Shown: piece after piece, positions 8,977 through 52,921 of the stretch | How positions within the stretch are numbered: position 1 is the first letter of the stretch | Layout: the number at the start of each line of letters is the position of its first letter | Sequence record: NC_070982.1 | Length of the DNA: 64,000 nucleotides | Source: Escherichia phage vB_EcoP-101114UKE3 | Reading direction: 5' to 3' (one strand) | Notes under the pieces: model-generated | What the model was told of the DNA's origin: nothing | What the model saw: only the letters and a program-made list of their open reading frames with translations | The model's database searches: none | Program-made: the position numbers and the translations under genes

Positions 8977-8985
8977 TAATGTATA
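8977..8985 (+). promoter_or_regulatory. Candidate phage promoter element TAATGTATA
   Basis: Exact TAATGTATA 34 nt upstream of the ATG at 9019, just after the capsid terminator. Confidence 0.35.
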
Positions 8986-25871: not shown

Positions 25872-25894
25872 TCTAAGACCTAAGTCCTATCTCT

Positions 25895-25905
25895 TATAAT
25901 GTATA
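25895..25905 (+). promoter_or_regulatory. Candidate promoter element TATAATGTATA
   Basis: TATAAT overlapping TAATGTATA, 37 nt upstream of the ATG at 25942. Confidence 0.35.
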
Positions 25906-25941
25906 TAGGAGGTAGGACATTTTTATTTATAAGGAGACGTT

Positions 25942-28900
25942 ATGGCTAATTTAAAATCGTGGGAAGAAGCTTCCAAAGCTCCTGCGTATCTGAACGCCTC
26001 TCCAGAGCAACAGGCTCAAATGAGAGAACAATACAAGGCAGCAGGGGGCACTATTCCTGAGACTCAACCACAAGAGCAACCACAACAAGAAGAACGAGGT
26101 GCTATTGGGGAGTTTGCTCAAGGTGTGTCTAACGCTCTTCAATCAGGTGGTGCTAACATTGCAGCTAGTGCTGCTAAAGGTTTAGGTGGGCTGGTAGAGA
26201 TTGGTGAAAACTTAACTGGTTCGGAAACAAGCTATGGTAAGCGCATTCAAGAGAACTCTAAACAGTTGCTGGAAGAACGCTTATCTAAGATAGAAGATGG
26301 TTTTGGTAAAACAGCTGGTCAGTATGCTGGTGTTGCTGCTGATATTGGTTTGACAGTTGCAAACCCTGCTGTTGCTGCTGCTGTTATCGCAGCTCGTGAA
26401 ACAGGTCGTGCTTATGCTGATCAAACTCCTAAAGAAGATGAAGATAAATCAGTCTTAGATGCTGCTCTTGTTGGTGGTGCTAACTACGCTGCTCAGAAGA
26501 TCCTTCCGGGCATGACTGGTACAGCTTCTACTACTCTTGGTCGTGTAGGACAAAGCGTAGCCTCTAACGCAGTTGCTGGTGCTAAGGGTGGTGCTATTGT
26601 TGGTGCTGCTGAAGCTCAGAACAAATATGGGGATGACACTACTCTAGCTAACGTATTAGAAGGGGCTATTGAAGAGGGTGCACTCGGTGCTGCTTATGGT
26701 GGGGCGATTGGTGGGGTTCATGGGTTAATAAGCCGTCCTAGCCCTCAAGTGTTTGATCGTACTCCTGAGCATGTTAAGACTGACATTGCTGCTGAAGATG
26801 AGGCTATTCGTAAAGCTGCTAACGCTGATGAACTTCGTGAAGCCTATGCTAAAGCTGAGAATGCTAATGCTGCCTCTGCTTTAAACCTTCTGGATGAAAA
26901 TGGTTTCCGAATCACAGATGCAGTTGCTATGGACTCTCCTGCTGTTCAGCGTATATTAAATACAGACCAAAGTCGTGCAGAGAAAGCTGCTACGGTTCAG
27001 AAAGATAGCTCTAATGTTCCCGGTCTCAATCCTCTCGCTTCTCCTAAGAAGACTCAAGGTAAAGCTTTTGCTGACAATGAGTACAACCAGAAACAAGCTG
27101 TGGCAATGAAAGATGCAATGGCTGACTACACTAAAGATAACACCAAAGCCCTTACTGATGTTCTAGACAACCTAGACCGAGAGTTAGTAGCTCTGAGAGC
27201 AAGTGGTGATTTTACTGGTAGTGCTATTGACATTAAAAACCGTACTCAAGCTGATCGTGATTTTATTGATGCTTATAAAACTTTTTACAGTGAAGCTAAT
27301 CGTTTCAAAGCTCGTGATGGTGAAGACCTAAACAACTTCATTGATAAAGCTACTCAGTTGCAGAAGCTATCTGAAAATGTTTCTCCAGAAATGAAGAAGG
27401 CCATTGGTGGATTAAAGAAACTAAAAGGTATGCCTGAAGGTTTTAACCCTATCCAAGATGCTTTCACTCTGAATAATACAGCTAAGTTCATGAGTAACCA
27501 AGACCGTGGTTGGACCTCTCTGACTGATGACGGTTTTCGTGAAGCTCCGGCTCCTGTGTTAGTTAAGAATCCTCTCGGTGCAGCCAAGTATGTACTTAAC
27601 CGCTTTACTTCCGATCGTGCTCGTGCTCAACGTGAGAAGCAACAGTCAGCTAATAGTGAAGCTATCCGCTCTTTGGCTAGGGCTGATTTAGAAGTACAAC
27701 GAGCTAGGACTCAGGCTGAAGAAGCAAGAGCAAAAATGGAAGAAGAACCAACCACAGAAGACATCAAATTCCGTACTCAAAATGATGCACCTTCCGAACC
27801 GGTTCGTGAGGAGCCTTCTGCTACTACTGTGACGGAAGAAATTCCGTCCTCTCCAGCTCCAACTGAAACACCTCTTACTGCGAGGGATTTGGTTGCTCAA
27901 AGACGTGCTCTCCAACAAGCAGAGCTTAGACGTCAAGAAGCTGAAGCTGCTCAGGCTCAAGAAAGTGCTACACCAGAACCTGAACCACAGCAAGAAGCTC
28001 TTACAGCTAGAGAATTAGTAGCTCAGCGTAGGGCTGTAGCAGAGGCTAAGAAACGTCAAGAGGCAGAAGAAGCAGAACGTGCTAAAGAAGCTCCTGAGGA
28101 AGCCGTAGAAGAGCCTAAAGAGAAACCTGAGCCATTACCTGCTCGTGCTCCTAAAGCTCCTGAGAAGGCTCCTGAGCCTGTTAAACCGTCACTTGGTGTA
28201 GAGCGTCTAGCTTCTATGTCAACTGCTGCTCGTCAAGCAACGAAAGACCGTGCTGATCGATTTGCTCGTTCTTTGTATTCGGCTGCTGCTAAAGCTAAAG
28301 CCACTGCGGAAAATTTCCTTTCTTACAAGGGAGATCCTAAAGAGCTTATGCGTCGTATCCGTCAGGAAGACCAAGCAAACAACACACAGCGTCATGAAGA
28401 GATGGCTAGAAACCAACTAGCTTCACAGCAAGGCATTGCTTCTGCTAAATCTCAACATGTTCGTGCTTCTTTTGCTGATTGGGTGAAAGAACGTGGGTTG
28501 CCTTCTGATATTGCTACTAAGGCTTTACGGGCTGAAGAGAAAGGTTTAGGTGGGAACGTCACAAGTCTAGATTCACTGAAGCGAAGAGCTGAGCGTTTAT
28601 ATCAGAAACAAAGAGATGATGAGTTTGACCGTCTCTATCGAGAGGCTCTGGAAGAGAATAAAGCTTTTGATAAGAGAGATGCTCCTAAACTGGTAGACCA
28701 GAAGAAAGAGCTTCAGGATGAAATTGGTGCGTTGCTTGATGCTGAACCGTTACGTCCTGCTCAGAAAGATGCTATGCGTAGGATTATGGAAGACTTCGTG
28801 GAGAGTAAGTTTAAATCTTCAGAGAAAGCTGGAAGGGTTGAGGCTTTGGAAGTTGGTCAGATGAAGGATGTGTGGGATGGGTTTATTAATACCTATAACC

Positions 28901-30387
28901 GAGAAGTTAACATGTTCAACAAGGCTAACAAGAATTCTCAATACGAAGCAGCAGCTAAACACTTGCAAGCACGTCAAGAACGTCTTGAGACGCTCCGTAA
29001 CAGAGCTAAAGCTCGCAGTGATGCTAAGGCAGCCATGGAGGCTGAGAAGCAGTCCTTGGAGGCTATAGCGGCTCAGAAATCAGAGATAGAGAAGATGTTC
29101 AAAGAATTGCCTGAAAGTGTCAGAGAGGCTCAGGAAGGGCGTACTTTGAAACAGCTTGCTGCTCACCATGATAAGAACTCTCCAGTACCACCAGAGCGTT
29201 TCCGTAGTATCATTGAACGTATTCACAACGCTGAGAGTGATTACCTCGATCGCAAACGTCGTTTGACCGAAGCAGAGGAAGATGCTCGTGAAGCTAAGTG
29301 GAATAGGATGTATGAACAGGCTGAGGAAATGAACCGTAAGTTTGATATCGATGCTAGAGTGAAGAGAGATAAGGCTCTGAAGGAAGCTCAAGAACGAGAG
29401 AATGACTTAATGGCAGTTCAACGTCAGCGTGACGACATTCATAAGCGTTTGGTCAATACTCTGGAAGAGAAGGGAGTTTCTAGAGAAGATGCTGAAGCAT
29501 ATGCTGGGTCTTATATGGATAATCGGTATGCTTTGTTAGAGAAACCAATGACTCCAGTGGAACATCAGAATGCTCGTGCTCGTATCGAATCTGACGTAGA
29601 GAAGTTTGTTAAGAAATACGAAACAGCTACTCCAATCGAAAGAGAGATTGCTAAAGCAACTGGTGATGCAGATGGGAAACCTTCTGACTTAGATGCAGAA
29701 ACATTAAAAGCTATCGAAGATGCTCGTAAAGTTGATTCCGATTTTAAGAAACTCTTAGATGAAGAGAAGGAAATGGAGAAGATTCGTTCAGCTCTACCTG
29801 AAGATGAAAGATCTCAGGCGAACTCTGATATTCTGGAAAGTATTAAGAAACAGGAAGATGATTTTGCTAGCAAAGCAGAGAAAGCTTTTATTGAAGGGAA
29901 GGACTTGCAGGAGTTAGCGAGTGTTGCAGAAGTTCTAGATAGGGTTCATGGTGCAGACAAGGCTGGTAACAACCGTCGATTTGTACGTGCTCTACAGACT
30001 GCTGCCGAGAACAAGAAACGTTATGGGGATAATCCAGTGGCTTGGTTTAGTGCTGATGATTACTCTGCTATTGCGAAACTTGGTGCTGCTTCGGCAGGTG
30101 GTAACAAATCTCGAGCACTTGAGAAAATCTTTGGTTCTACAGCAGAACAAGCTAAAGGGAAACTTTTAGGGCGGGATGATGTAGCTAAGATTAGACGTGT
30201 GATTGAAGCGAATCCCAATGTTAAGATTCCTTCTTACAAGACAACTACTCGACAAGAGTACATGCAGTTCTTGGAGAAGTATAATGACGAGGGAGAGTTG
30301 AAAGTCAAACGTGGTTCTCTGTCTGACAAGTTGGAGAGAGGTAAGCGTCAAGCTAAACTCCGTGTTAGAGTTCGAGCTAAGGAGTAA
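25942..30387 (+). CDS. Giant coiled-coil virion protein, internal or ejection protein or tape-measure-like (1481 aa)
   Basis: A/E/K/R-rich helical repeats; last gene of the plus-strand module; RBS AAGGAGA. Confidence 0.55.
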   Translation: MANLKSWEEASKAPAYLNASPEQQAQMREQYKAAGGTIPETQPQEQPQQEERGAIGEFAQGVSNALQSGGANIAASAAKGLGGLVEIGENLTGSETSYGKRIQENSKQLLEERLSKIEDGFGKTAGQYAGVAADIGLTVANPAVAAAVIAARETGRAYADQTPKEDEDKSVLDAALVGGANYAAQKILPGMTGTASTTLGRVGQSVASNAVAGAKGGAIVGAAEAQNKYGDDTTLANVLEGAIEEGALGAAYGGAIGGVHGLISRPSPQVFDRTPEHVKTDIAAEDEAIRKAANADELREAYAKAENANAASALNLLDENGFRITDAVAMDSPAVQRILNTDQSRAEKAATVQKDSSNVPGLNPLASPKKTQGKAFADNEYNQKQAVAMKDAMADYTKDNTKALTDVLDNLDRELVALRASGDFTGSAIDIKNRTQADRDFIDAYKTFYSEANRFKARDGEDLNNFIDKATQLQKLSENVSPEMKKAIGGLKKLKGMPEGFNPIQDAFTLNNTAKFMSNQDRGWTSLTDDGFREAPAPVLVKNPLGAAKYVLNRFTSDRARAQREKQQSANSEAIRSLARADLEVQRARTQAEEARAKMEEEPTTEDIKFRTQNDAPSEPVREEPSATTVTEEIPSSPAPTETPLTARDLVAQRRALQQAELRRQEAEAAQAQESATPEPEPQQEALTARELVAQRRAVAEAKKRQEAEEAERAKEAPEEAVEEPKEKPEPLPARAPKAPEKAPEPVKPSLGVERLASMSTAARQATKDRADRFARSLYSAAAKAKATAENFLSYKGDPKELMRRIRQEDQANNTQRHEEMARNQLASQQGIASAKSQHVRASFADWVKERGLPSDIATKALRAEEKGLGGNVTSLDSLKRRAERLYQKQRDDEFDRLYREALEENKAFDKRDAPKLVDQKKELQDEIGALLDAEPLRPAQKDAMRRIMEDFVESKFKSSEKAGRVEALEVGQMKDVWDGFINTYNREVNMFNKANKNSQYEAAAKHLQARQERLETLRNRAKARSDAKAAMEAEKQSLEAIAAQKSEIEKMFKELPESVREAQEGRTLKQLAAHHDKNSPVPPERFRSIIERIHNAESDYLDRKRRLTEAEEDAREAKWNRMYEQAEEMNRKFDIDARVKRDKALKEAQERENDLMAVQRQRDDIHKRLVNTLEEKGVSREDAEAYAGSYMDNRYALLEKPMTPVEHQNARARIESDVEKFVKKYETATPIEREIAKATGDADGKPSDLDAETLKAIEDARKVDSDFKKLLDEEKEMEKIRSALPEDERSQANSDILESIKKQEDDFASKAEKAFIEGKDLQELASVAEVLDRVHGADKAGNNRRFVRALQTAAENKKRYGDNPVAWFSADDYSAIAKLGAASAGGNKSRALEKIFGSTAEQAKGKLLGRDDVAKIRRVIEANPNVKIPSYKTTTRQEYMQFLEKYNDEGELKVKRGSLSDKLERGKRQAKLRVRVRAKE

Positions 30388-30396
30388 ACAAGAAAA

Positions 30397-30434
30397 GCCC
30401 CCAACCTGTAAAAAGGAAGGGGGCTTCTTTATTT
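30397..30434. terminator. Bidirectional terminator between the convergent gene blocks
   Basis: GCCCCCAACC...GGAAGGGGGC hairpin flanked by T-rich tracts on both strands. Confidence 0.5.
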
Positions 30435-30504
30435 CTAGATGTTAGAATCCATCAAATTCATCATACATCCCAATTTTCTTCTTCAAAGTCAATCATAAAA
30501 CCTC

Positions 30505-30804
30505 CTAGATTAAATCGTAATACTTAATAATATCAGAGAGCTTAAACTCTCTAATGTCATTCTTGTCATTATCCCAAGCAGTCATTATCCAACAAGGTTT
30601 GCCCCCATTATGATAAGGGGAAGAAGCAACTGAGGTTCGTATAGGAATAACGGAGCGGTCTGCAATCTCGCCTCTCCAATTACGATAGCTAAAGCGAAGA
30701 ATTTGTTTCGTAGATACTTGATCATTTGTGCTTTCCTTGTTCATTGATTCAAAGACTTCTTTTTCTTCAGGAGTCTCTAGATTTTTTAAATTCACGTCTT
30801 GCAT
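30505..30804 (-). CDS. Hypothetical protein (about 100 aa)
   Basis: ORF-track frame 30505..30927 trimmed to the ATG at 30804 with AGAGGA RBS; 38-nt overlap with the upstream gene. Confidence 0.4.
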   Translation of the reverse strand: MQDVNLKNLETPEEKEVFESMNKESTNDQVSTKQILRFSYRNWRGEIADRSVIPIRTSVASSPYHNGGKPCWIMTAWDNDKNDIREFKLSDIIKYYDLI

Positions 30805-31171
30805 CGTTTTCCTCTTTAGTTTTAATCTTATGGCATGGTTCTTTACATAAGACCTGAAAGCCATCTTTCTCAACCAAAGCTCTCTCAATAATCTCATCCC
30901 AAGTAGCTTCATGGTCCACTGGAACAATAGGCTCGATGTGGTCGACAGCCACCTCTTTCAGAGGAGAGTCATTACCGCACATGGCACACTTGTAGTGCAT
31001 TGCCAGCTTGCCAGTCTTAGGATTGATTTTACGTTCTGTCTGAGCTTCTTTGAGAGCATCAAACATAGGCTTCCACTTTCTAGTCAGAGAACGAATCCCT
31101 GACTTAATGAAGGAGTTGTAACGTGCTTCAGTCCACTGATTTGAACATCTTGTCTTCTCAGCCTTCGCCAT
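30767..31171 (-). CDS. HNH endonuclease (134 aa)
   Basis: Motifs CAMCG, DHIEP and CHKIK fit the HNH fold. Confidence 0.6.
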   Translation of the reverse strand: MAKAEKTRCSNQWTEARYNSFIKSGIRSLTRKWKPMFDALKEAQTERKINPKTGKLAMHYKCAMCGNDSPLKEVAVDHIEPIVPVDHEATWDEIIERALVEKDGFQVLCKEPCHKIKTKEENDARREFKKSRDS

Positions 31172-32181: not shown

Positions 32182-32770
32182 AGAGTTCTCTCCGTGTCCG
32201 TACAACAATCCAGTTTAAATAATCTACTGCATCTTCTACAGTAGAATTATTCGCTAGGTAGTATGTATTTCTCTGACTACCTTCAATGTAGGAACGAGAA
32301 TCTCCTTTAAAATCACAACCTTCACGAATCACCTGAATTACCTGAACATGGAAATGTTTCTCTAGTTCTTCAACTTCGGCTTTGAACCCACCATCAGAGA
32401 AGACGATAACATCATTCTGTGATGGGATACGTTGTTGAATACTGCTAACAGCAAGTTTACCCATGCAGGTCTCACCAAACATAGGCTTCAGGTAATTCTC
32501 GCTAGTTGCAATCATCAAGTCTCGAACTGACTTACCGTCCCATTCAGGACGGCTATGTTCTTTCCACTCACGATCGTTGTACAGCTCCATGAACTCATAA
32601 AGAGGTAGACCTAATGCAGCAGCAGCCACTCGATACATAGGCTCCTTAAAAGCCTTTACATGAGGCCTAAACTCGGTGTTACCAAGTGTTTTCTCTAACC
32701 AAGAATTAGCGATTGTATCTTTACCACAACCCGGTGGTCCATTCAGAATTACTACTAATGGTTTACTCAT
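32174..32770 (-). CDS. P-loop kinase, deoxynucleoside monophosphate kinase-like (198 aa)
   Basis: N-terminal P-loop GPPGCGKDT. Confidence 0.5.
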   Translation of the reverse strand: MSKPLVVILNGPPGCGKDTIANSWLEKTLGNTEFRPHVKAFKEPMYRVAAAALGLPLYEFMELYNDREWKEHSRPEWDGKSVRDLMIATSENYLKPMFGETCMGKLAVSSIQQRIPSQNDVIVFSDGGFKAEVEELEKHFHVQVIQVIREGCDFKGDSRSYIEGSQRNTYYLANNSTVEDAVDYLNWIVVRTRRELYV

Positions 32771-33420
32771 TATTGAATCATCCCTTGAAGATCTTCTTTA
32801 TCAAAGTGCTTCTCTACTACCGCTTCATACAGATCACGATTCTCTGAATAACGACGATAGAAGGTTCCGTGTGAAATTCCCAACTCTTGCTGGATGTGAT
32901 CATGTGGGATGCCGAGAAAGAGCATTGAGAACATGCTTGCCATCTTACGGTTTTCCATAATGTCACTCAGGTCTTGGAAGAAGAAAAAGATTCTAGATTC
33001 CAAGAACGGGTCTCCAGTAGAATCATGCTTATCCATCGCAATCTCTAAAGGACTTTCCCATGAATTCATCTCAGGAGGTCTAAACATATCAGCCTCTGGA
33101 ATAGAGTAGATACGTCGGTCTCCAACTGTCTGGCGATTAGAACGAATCGACCAGATGATATTCTTGACACGATAAGTCATGTGCTCAATATCTTTTTCAT
33201 CAGTGAGCAGAAGTTCTTCTTGCTTTGCAAACACAAAACGCCAAGCGTTCAGTAATACTTCCTGAGCAACATCCTCTGCCTCGTGATAGTCTTTAATGTC
33301 ATACATAAAATACTTATGCACAACTTTCCAATTCTCTCGATAGAATTCATCGAAGGTTGGGTAGTACTTAATAGGTATGCCATGAATACGATAGCGTGTG
33401 GGTGTTGTCTTTTTCTTCAT
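32770..33420 (-). CDS. Sigma-70 family (ECF-like) sigma factor (216 aa)
   Basis: Region 2-like [15 protein letters not shown] and region 4-like [29 protein letters not shown]. Confidence 0.55.
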
Positions 33421-33444
33421 AAGTCATCCTTAACTTACTTTACA

Positions 33445-33669
33445 TTAAACTACACAGAATAAATACATTGCTGTTTCAGGGGAAGGTATGTGGTCACTAG
33501 GATATCTAACCCTAATCCACTCATCATCTTCTGCTACATAATAAGCCCAATAAGACCCATTTTCATTAATAAAGAACTTGAAGGTACAACCAAAGATTTG
33601 GTTATTGTGTTCCCATACTGCATGAAACTGAGTAACACCTTCTGGTATTGTAAGTTCCGCTCTGATCAT
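33445..33669 (-). CDS. Hypothetical protein (74 aa)
   Basis: ORF whose start overlaps the o-spanin stop. Confidence 0.4.
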   Translation of the reverse strand: MIRAELTIPEGVTQFHAVWEHNNQIFGCTFKFFINENGSYWAYYVAEDDEWIRVRYPSDHIPSPETAMYLFCVV

Positions 33670-34171: not shown

Positions 34172-34197
34172 AAAAAAGCCACCCGAAGGTGGCTAAG
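34172..34197 (-). terminator. Rho-independent terminator with UUCG loop (minus strand)
   Basis: Minus-strand RNA reads AGCCACC-UUCG-GGUGGCU followed by UUUUUU. Confidence 0.5.
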
Positions 34198-35017: not shown

Positions 35018-35026
35018 TATACATTA
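35018..35026 (-). promoter_or_regulatory. Candidate promoter element TAATGTATA upstream of the SSB gene
   Basis: Minus strand reads GTGTAATGTATATA about 60 nt upstream of the SSB ATG. Confidence 0.3.
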
Positions 35027-45194: not shown

Positions 45195-45257
45195 ACTCAT
45201 ATCCTTATAAAGAAGTTCGCCCCACCTCTTGAACAAAGAGACAGGGCGGAGGTTTGA

Positions 45258-45824
45258 TTAGTAAGACACATCACCACTGGAGTGGGACATGTTGCTCTTG
45301 ACGAAGTAACAGAACTTGCCAAGACCTTCATTAATTTCTTGAAGCATACTCTGGTCCACTGGATAGGTGCACAAGTCTGAATCAAACTCATCCATCTTCT
45401 CAATGATACACATAAGAGTCATGCACATGTCGGAAAGCATACCGTCCATGTCAAGATCAGCGTTACCTTCTCGGAACCAAGCATGACCTAAATAATTACT
45501 AGCAGTAGCATCCACTTTAACACAATGAAAGCGCATACGCTCTGCTATTCGGTCGCCTGCCTCACGAGCATAATCTTCTAGTTCATCGAACATACCATGA
45601 ACACCTTGGAAACCAGCTCCAGAGACGTTCCAGTGGTAGTTCTTTGCTTTGATGTGTAGAAGTTCAAGGTTAGCTTGCACACCACACAAGATGTGTTCTA
45701 AGCTGTTACCGCTAATCAGTTTATTCATTCCCTCAAGACGAGAGATAGAAGAGTCAGTAGCAGAGAATGGGTTGCTAGAACCCACTCGTGTTAGTTCTGG
45801 TAAGTCGAAGACATTATTATGCAT
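45258..45824 (-). CDS. Dps-like ferritin-fold protein (188 aa)
   Basis: KNYHWNVSGAGFQGVHGMFDELEDYAREAGDRIAERM matches the Dps pattern HW-x-V-x-G-x-F...H...F-x-E...D-x-IAER. Confidence 0.65.
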   Translation of the reverse strand: MHNNVFDLPELTRVGSSNPFSATDSSISRLEGMNKLISGNSLEHILCGVQANLELLHIKAKNYHWNVSGAGFQGVHGMFDELEDYAREAGDRIAERMRFHCVKVDATASNYLGHAWFREGNADLDMDGMLSDMCMTLMCIIEKMDEFDSDLCTYPVDQSMLQEINEGLGKFCYFVKSNMSHSSGDVSY

Positions 45825-46146
45825 TAGGTGCATCCCCTTCTAAGTTAGTTGAATTAGCTACATTACGAGCAATGTTATCCATGACCTGCTGTGTAATAAC
45901 AATGCAATTCTGAGGGTCTACTGATTTAGAACGCCCCATCTCAGGGTCATAGACTTTGACTCGCTTGGCTGTTGAGCCAGTAACTTGCAACACTTTGAGA
46001 AGATAGCCTTGGTTTCCAATAGACCATGCAACAACATCACGATTCTTGATATAACGACCAAGCATGTCACGATGATAGAACTGCTGCATAACTTTAGCTT
46101 TGCTAATCTCTTCAGATGGCGGGGCCACTTTACTCAAATCTAACAT
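45817..46146 (-). CDS. Hypothetical protein (109 aa)
   Basis: ATG at 46146 with AGGAGAG RBS; a near-copy of the TAATGTATA element lies about 40 nt upstream. Confidence 0.4.
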   Translation of the reverse strand: MLDLSKVAPPSEEISKAKVMQQFYHRDMLGRYIKNRDVVAWSIGNQGYLLKVLQVTGSTAKRVKVYDPEMGRSKSVDPQNCIVITQQVMDNIARNVANSTNLEGDAPNA

Positions 46147-46216
46147 AACTCTCTCCTGTTTCATACAATATTCTTATACTGTATATACATTTGAGAGTTA
46201 TCATATCTACTACCAA

Positions 46217-52496: not shown

Positions 52497-52682
52497 TTAT
52501 TCTACTTCGAAGTGTTTGATCACACCAGTCAGTACATCAGATTGGAATGTACCCACTAGCTCTGTACCTCGGAAAAAGTTAACACTTGTTCCAAGTGATT
52601 CAAAGCGATCTGCTTGAATGTCCAGAGATTGAATATTTCCTTCTGCTGACATTGTACGAAACATGATTGTGTATTTATTCAC
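52497..52682 (-). CDS. Small hypothetical protein (61 aa), GTG start
   Basis: GTG at 52682 with AAGGGAG RBS, overlapping the upstream stop. Confidence 0.35.
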   Translation of the reverse strand: MNKYTIMFRTMSAEGNIQSLDIQADRFESLGTSVNFFRGTELVGTFQSDVLTGVIKHFEVE

Positions 52683-52921
52683 AGACTCGTTACTCCCTTA
52701 TCTGCTTGTGCAATTGCGATGATACGCTCAGCACATTCCATTGAATACTTATCACCTCGTTTGAGGAAGGTGATGATTGCAGAGAACTGATTACCAATCA
52801 TTCTCTTATTTGTGATACCAAACTCTTCACAGAGTTGGTTGATAGCTTTACGAGAGCCTACAATCAGAGGCTCTTTTTCTTCGGTCATTCCACGGCTGAT
52901 CAAATCTTCGATAGACAACAT
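52679..52921 (-). CDS. Small hypothetical protein (80 aa)
   Basis: ORF in the operon. Confidence 0.4.
   Translation of the reverse strand: MLSIEDLISRGMTEEKEPLIVGSRKAINQLCEEFGITNKRMIGNQFSAIITFLKRGDKYSMECAERIIAIAQADKGVTSL

Follow-up and report, generated by a model that had tools for sequence, protein, structure and literature searches.

A candidate bidirectional intrinsic terminator between the convergent gene arms of a phiEco32-like Escherichia phage

The gene arms and the hairpin between them

The window, i.e. the whole stretch of 64,000 nucleotides of Escherichia phage vB_EcoP-101114UKE3 (NC_070982.1) that was analysed, was assigned to the Gordonclarkvirinae (phiEco32-like prolate podophages) with a 5-kb query around the junction of its two gene arms. 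This query matched 97 phage records, nearly all of them from Escherichia or Shigella phages, and showed 100% identity over the 5 kb to vB_EcoP-101114BS3 (MZ234015), 99.7% to IME267 and 94-96% to NC-B, Bas87, 4E8 and SU7. All sizeable open reading frames (ORFs) are on the plus strand to the left of position 30387 and on the minus strand from 30505 rightward, and the maximum of the cumulative GC skew coincides with this junction, where the skew switches because the coding strand does, making another cause unnecessary. The plus arm (1 to 30387) codes for the terminase large subunit, the portal, scaffold and major head proteins, several tail fibre proteins, an ejection protein and, in its last gene (25942..30387), a 1481-aa homologue of phiEco32 gp26 (full-length match to phrog_14629, 80% identity), a protein recorded as virion-associated in a note to the GenBank record of phage Paul (MN045231). 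The minus arm (30505 rightward) carries genes for a small WYL-like protein, an HNH endonuclease, a 5'-3' exonuclease, a dNMP kinase and the phage sigma factor, followed further along by a phosphoesterase, DNA polymerase, PhoH, a primase/helicase, early metabolic genes and a gp79 homologue. Its last sizeable gene (30505..30807) encodes a 100-aa WYL-domain-like protein (PF13280, 24.7 bits against a Pfam cut-off of 21.8; phrog_3715), a homologue of SU7 gp024 that is annotated in relatives as hypothetical only. The sigma factor gene (32770..33420, minus strand; phrog_1740, E 1e-43), which lies 2.3-3.0 kb upstream of the junction hairpin on its strand, is a homologue of phiEco32 gp36 (80% identity), and the corresponding gene is labelled sigma factor in the Bas87 record. 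When phiEco32 proteins were used in tblastn searches, gp36 was found at 33420..32776 (80%), gp79 at 52921..52682 (76%) and gp26 with 80% identity.

A single hairpin (30395..30426, both strands) occupies part of the 117-nt gap between the two convergent genes. It reads AAGCCCCC-AA-CCT-GTAAAA-AGG-AA-GGGGGCTT and consists of an 8-bp outer stem with six G-C pairs (AAGCCCCC, 30395-30402, with GGGGGCTT, 30419-30426), a 2x2 AA/AA internal loop, a 3-bp inner stem (CCT, 30405-30407, with AGG, 30414-30416) and the 6-nt terminal loop GTAAAA. The stem starts 8 nt past the plus-strand stop (TAA, 30385-30387); on the minus strand it starts 79 nt past the stop of the WYL-like gene. To its left, the A-rich run ACAAGAAAAG (30388-30397) follows the TAA; the A-tract AACAAGAAAA, which shares the last two bases (AA) of this stop codon, is read on the minus strand as the U-tract UUUUCUUGUUU (30386..30396) and is A-rich in all 20 relatives with an intact hairpin. 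To the right lies the T-rich run CTTCTTTATTTC (30424..30435; RNA CUUCUUUAUUUC), which is T-rich in relatives as well. An A-tract 5' and a T-tract 3' of one palindromic stem thus yield a hairpin plus U-tract on both strands: GGGGGC-UUCUUUAUUU in the plus-strand reading, with an interrupted tract and eight U among the ten tail positions, and GGGGGC-UUUUCUUGUUU in the minus-strand reading, with nine U among eleven. Compared with an intrinsic terminator, the sole atypical detail is the 2x2 internal loop. The whole element spans approximately 30386-30436; the preliminary description, which placed it at 30397-30434, missed the left A-tract (30388-30396), the template of the minus-strand U-tract.

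As plus-strand RNA the 36-nt core folds with -20.0 kcal/mol (z -3.9) and as minus-strand RNA with -21.8 kcal/mol (z -4.25), a stability reached by none of 200 shuffled sequences in either case, and folds of the minus strand exceed those of the plus strand in stability by 1.8-4.4 kcal/mol. A custom constrained-fold scan for single hairpins abutting a T-rich tail, covering both strands of all 64 kb, ranked the junction hairpin first on each strand (-20.0 kcal/mol on the plus and -23.0 kcal/mol on the minus strand). Among the best 25 candidates per strand, only one other site recurred on both, at 45212-45254 (-15.5 on the plus and -14.6 on the minus strand). This second hairpin is located just past the stop of a minus-strand gene (45258..45833) and has the minus-strand tail CTTCTTTATAAG and a poor plus-strand tail; judged by these features, it probably terminates transcription in one direction only, inside the middle region. 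A simpler terminator scan did not list the junction site, because it was limited to loops of 3-8 nt and disallowed internal loops. Searching the whole window against Rfam at gathering thresholds gave zero matches, and known structured RNA families therefore do not explain the hairpin.

Two overlapping mini-ORFs were recognized by sequence and alignment on the minus strand at 30442..30496, namely MIDFEEENWDV-stop (30496..30461) and MYDEFDGF-stop (30468..30442), the latter ending 16 nt before the stem. The alignment identifies both as remnants of what is the gp27 region in phiEco32; beyond them, no further coding sequence is possible ahead of the putative minus-strand terminator. Database records conflict on the frame of gp27 (MKKLL...EENWDV versus MNEEVV...PDF). 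Between the window and phiEco32 the MYDEFDGF frame has three differences, and since all three are synonymous, present or past translation of this frame, whose peptide is acidic and ends in Phe, is hinted at. A prfB-like +1 frameshift by which EENWDV would be joined to DEFDGF was considered and rejected: the P-site codon GUA is unable to pair again after a +1 shift, and proper Shine-Dalgarno spacing is absent.

Conservation and known counterparts

The junction was extracted from 21 relatives, a sample of the 96 related GenBank records, with GenBank phage records as the main source, as an IMG/VR scan with the gp26 C-terminus returned 4 loci only. In 20 of the 21 the hairpin is kept at an equal distance past the stop of the gp26 homologue and is bordered by A-rich sequence on the left and T-rich sequence on the right. 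Several relatives differ within the stem on both sides at once: the inner stem CCT/AGG is replaced by GGA/TCC in KBNP1711, Paul and SGF2, CC/GG by TC/GA in O18-011, and the outer stem CCCC/GGGG by CCCTC/GAGGG in Bas92, Paul and SGF2. In 4E8 (locus L008, 1304-1353) a change of AA to TT closes the internal loop, giving a perfect 13-bp stem of -33 kcal/mol, and in YF01 (L017, 1304-1353) the hairpin top is inverted relative to EcoN5 with both flanks kept. The hairpin is broken in myPSH2311 (L016, about 1485-1536), whose gp26 region also looks fragmented, gp26 being annotated merely as a 198-nt fragment. Across the 13 distinct sequences 96.3% of cells were paired, as against 31-69% in controls with slid partners, and four of the 11 pairs had changed on both sides; the covariation score was 0.214, compared with 0.082 in shuffles (attained by 0 of 500). 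In the MAFFT alignment of the hairpin the phiEco32 and EP335 rows are off by one column, so that these pairing counts are slightly understated and hence conservative.

To the right of the T-tract the sequence diverges, several relatives having insertions or an additional ORF there, and in these alignments the hairpin together with its flanks is the conserved island of the junction. An indel hot spot was observed in the interval that separates the terminator from the first leftward sequence to be conserved (relatives' loci L001, 3939-4113; L002, 3994-4260; L003; L004; L006). SU7 (L001, 3939-4113) and ECBP2 (L003) have a non-coding insertion of ~130 nt at this place, right of the terminator, and NJ01, KBNP1711, Bas87, EK010 and Bas88 have an extra small ORF.

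Terminators have been annotated by independent annotators on both strands at the homologous gp26/gp27 junction spot in SU7 (NC_070980, 30422-30479), where the hairpin is base-for-base identical to that of the window, in 4E8 (OQ689734, 30766-30818) and in Paul (MN045231, 32211-32252). In all three, the annotated position has the gp26 homologue on one side and the first leftward gene on the other, and the hairpin family is the same, with nothing materially different; the annotations are software predictions, not experiments, those of SU7 having been made with ARNold according to its paper. The record MZ234015, which is identical to the window, has no terminator annotated at the junction. For SU10, the last middle gene has been reported to be followed downstream by a putative Rho-independent terminator (PMC4281155). 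The junction terminator is thus already known, from the annotation of close relatives and from descriptions of the group.

More distant systems show a similar arrangement. In Salmonella phage 7-11, two intrinsic terminator signals, one on the forward and one on the reverse strand, have been described between the gene clusters (PMC4331800). At this point of its genome (NC_015938, 30420-30454) a plus-strand structural and a minus-strand functional cluster converge on one hairpin with A/T tracts that folds on both strands and is annotated as a terminator on both, and the phage sigma factor is likewise situated deep in the leftward cluster. Phage 7-11 differs in belonging to the Grimontviridae, in its unrelated hairpin (GGGGA-UUAAUU-UCCCC) and in its other flanking genes. 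For TD1 of Bacillus phage phi29 transcript-level experimental support exists; phi29 transcription depends on the host sigma-A holoenzyme and phage regulators, not on a phage sigma factor. TD1 is likewise a single hairpin, called a bidirectional transcriptional terminator on the genetic and transcriptional map (PMC2731898), but belongs to an unrelated phage and host and has an unrelated sequence. The ynaJ-uspE pair of E. coli also has one hairpin common to two convergent units, which are transcribed by the host core RNA polymerase (RNAP) and have overlapping complementary 3' ends; it differs in its host chromosomal context and in that termination in a single direction is weak and depends on collision (bioRxiv 10.1101/2022.10.23.513370).

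The preliminary description had proposed that plus-strand virion genes and minus-strand replication and early genes converge on one hairpin flanked by T-tracts on both strands, which serves as a shared bidirectional terminator. The convergence is borne out by ORF strands, gene functions and inward-pointing promoter motifs (see below), and the single hairpin with its two tracts by the sequence, the folding and the top rank in the window scan. The proposed shared function is in agreement with the annotation on both strands in three relatives and with the retention of the hairpin, with compensatory changes, in 20 of 21, which argue for a terminator acting in both directions.

Promoters, internal terminators and the sigma factor gene

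In phiEco32 three transcription classes have been published: early and middle genes are on the minus strand and late genes on the plus strand, early genes being transcribed with sigma70 and middle and late genes with the phage sigma gp36 and its co-activator gp79 (PMC12276001; PMC4281155; PMC4331800). Promoters of the form tAATGTAtA precede phiEco32 genes 13 and 26 (late) and 40, 58 and 68 (middle), P40 included (PMC4331800), and P26 is the model late promoter (PMC12276001). An exact match to the gp36-type motif, TAATGTATA, is present in the window at the position homologous to P26 (25897..25905, plus strand), 37 nt before the ATG at 25942, and a second one at the position homologous to P40 (35018..35026, minus strand); of the phage-sigma promoters from which minus-strand transcription runs to the junction, the latter is the nearest. 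Both of these motifs point inward to the junction. The exact gp36-type motifs of the window are located at 8977 and 25897 on the plus strand (late) and at 35018 and 41575 on the minus strand (middle), with AAATGTATA at 46184 on the minus strand (middle), and the P58 and P68 contexts align with those of phiEco32. By homology, the minus strand would comprise middle genes from the junction to 46.2 kb and early genes beyond about 46.2 kb, and both transcript streams arriving at the hairpin would be driven by gp36 and overlap in time. In an RNA-seq paper involving Kuraviruses, reads were mapped to the host genome alone.

In view of these classes, the simple two-strand temporal programme that had been suggested in the preliminary description on the basis of strand and of the late position of the sigma gene is too simple and not supported: by homology the minus strand would combine early (distal) with middle (junction-adjacent) genes, as in the three classes of phiEco32, gp36 would drive both of the streams that meet, and internal promoter motifs and candidate terminators exist. 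The sigma gene does lie distally, a position that has already been discussed (PMC8948821). A strong candidate intrinsic terminator, AGCCACC-TTCG-GGTGGCT followed by TTTTTTCG (RNA UUUUUUCG), was found by the terminator scan on the minus strand at 34177..34194 and is also conserved in phiEco32. Because the P40-like promoter (35026..35018) and the sigma gene lie on either side of it, expression of sigma would need read-through or another promoter and is not readable from strand position alone, a dependence that has likewise been discussed before (PMC4281155; PMC8948821).

Other observations concern the start regions of individual genes. In the window and in SU7 the sequence TAATGTAAA (33447..33439, minus strand), one mismatch from the gp36 consensus, is found 19 nt before the ATG of the sigma gene, while the same spot carries a sigma70-like TGGACA-18-TATAAT in phiEco32 and TAATATAAA in Bas87; control of the sigma gene may therefore differ between genera. 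A role of TAATGTAAA as a gp36-type autoregulatory promoter of the sigma gene was set aside, the sequence being changed in Bas87 and absent in phiEco32. Just upstream of the start of the gp26 homologue, a 15-bp hairpin followed by ATTTTTATTT (25884-25918, plus strand) encloses the late motif TAATGTATA, so that a terminator-like structure of the upstream late genes overlaps the promoter of the next gene. At 1540-1584 on the plus strand, upstream of an ORF starting at 1585, the hairpin GCCTCC-TCTCGT-GGGAGGC is followed by TTTTTG and then by TTATAATGATAATGTAGA, which combines a sigma70-like -10 element with a one-mismatch gp36 motif. The first plus-strand genes have been considered to be possibly read by both holoenzymes (PMC4281155), and TTATAATGATAATGTAGA fits this proposal.

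Probable termination at the junction

The host core enzyme responds to intrinsic terminators. The phages of this group have no RNA polymerase of their own and use the host core with either sigma70 or the phage sigma (PMC12276001), so that the polymerase transcribing their genes should respond to such signals too. The junction element is, in our judgement, very probably a bidirectional Rho-independent (intrinsic) terminator for the host core RNA polymerase. We infer termination at this site, its efficiency and the exact 3' ends from the element as follows. On the plus strand, the late transcript from the P26-like promoter (25897), carrying the 4.4-kb gene of the gp26 homologue as its single gene, would end at the hairpin: the RNA hairpin 30395-30426 would form and the UUCUUUAUUU tract would free the transcript, with predicted 3' ends near 30431-30436. 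Leftward transcripts, namely those of the sigma, dNMP kinase, exonuclease, HNH and WYL-like genes, would be stopped in the minus-strand reading by the complementary hairpin together with UUUUCUUGUUU, with predicted 3' ends near 30386-30391. Overlap between the two sets of transcripts would be confined to the hairpin region of ~45 nt; each arm would thereby be spared antisense read-through, and head-on polymerase traffic would be limited. Because the plus-strand U-tract is interrupted and the stem contains a 2x2 internal loop, the efficiency of termination may be partial. An antitermination mechanism, not defined further, has been suspected in these phages by the authors of the 7-11 study (PMC8948821), and the N-terminus of gp79 enters the so-called RNA channel of RNAP (PMC12276001); either antitermination or gp79 could alter the response to the terminator in infected cells.

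The same interrupted U-tract and internal loop would also fit a sub-maximal intrinsic terminator, as is assumed when the hairpin is regarded mainly as a strong pause site that fixes the point of head-on polymerase collisions, release being dependent on collisions with trailing polymerases and not by the hairpin and U-tract. [quoted passage not shown] Dense convergent traffic would indeed be expected at the junction if, as homology suggests, one phage sigma serves both arms during mid and late infection. The hairpin, however, is strong (-20 to -23 kcal/mol) and its two strands both carry U-rich tails, as in efficient intrinsic terminators, and we regard release mainly by collision as unlikely; moreover, it would refine the explanation as a terminator without excluding it.

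Termination on one strand only, with the hairpin and U-tract of the other strand arising as a by-product of palindromy, would be compatible with the difference between the two readings, as the minus-strand tail UUUUCUUGUUU opens with four unbroken U, the plus-strand tail is UUCUUUAUUU and the minus-strand folds are the more stable ones by the 1.8-4.4 kcal/mol given above. Both flanks, however, are kept in the 20 intact relatives, in which the sequence beyond them diverges or has indels, and YF01 retains both in spite of its inverted hairpin top. As both arms need a stop and other strong candidates are absent between the last genes, a one-way terminator appears improbable.

Terminator hairpins are also known to protect mRNA 3' ends, and the predicted convergent transcripts would share ~45 complementary nt that would form an RNase III target if the 3' ends of the two arms paired. 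The hairpin might accordingly be chiefly a 3'-end stabiliser or processing site (an exonuclease block or an RNase III target), with transcription being stopped by Rho or further downstream. This is very improbable in our view, considering that the U-tracts, which are needed for intrinsic termination but not for protection against exonucleases, are conserved on both sides, and that directly beyond the hairpin a polymerase coming from either side would be transcribing a long gene in antisense, with other terminator candidates absent nearby. The A.A (on the other strand U.U) 2x2 internal loop is widely kept in relatives. A more elaborate and very speculative reading makes the junction a programmed collision point at which polymerases modified by gp36 and gp79 meet head-on, the ~45-nt 3' ends would pair as double-stranded RNA and couple the processing or decay of the late gp26 mRNA to that of the leftward middle mRNA, and the A.A (U.U) loop would serve for recognition or tuning. 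A role at the DNA level, be it cruciform formation, termination of replication, or recombination or endonuclease action at the boundary of the modules, is scarcely credible: the cumulative GC skew peaks at the junction, an indel hot spot lies just right of the hairpin and HNH endonuclease genes are nearby, but the skew switch follows the switch of coding strand, the indels fall outside the hairpin, which is itself kept, and stem changes that preserve pairing together with retained A/T tracts are the signature of an RNA terminator.

Read as a bidirectional intrinsic terminator, the element has small significance beyond correct annotation, given that the regulatory logic of the phiEco32-like group has already been published. 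Being compact and naturally validated, it could be of use as a part for two-way termination, and the junction could provide a site at which the response of gp79-bound RNA polymerase to intrinsic terminators may be tested. For the phage itself, a phiEco32-like coliphage that is a therapeutic candidate, the element would bound the late structural arm against the middle and early arm and predicts where both sets of transcripts end.
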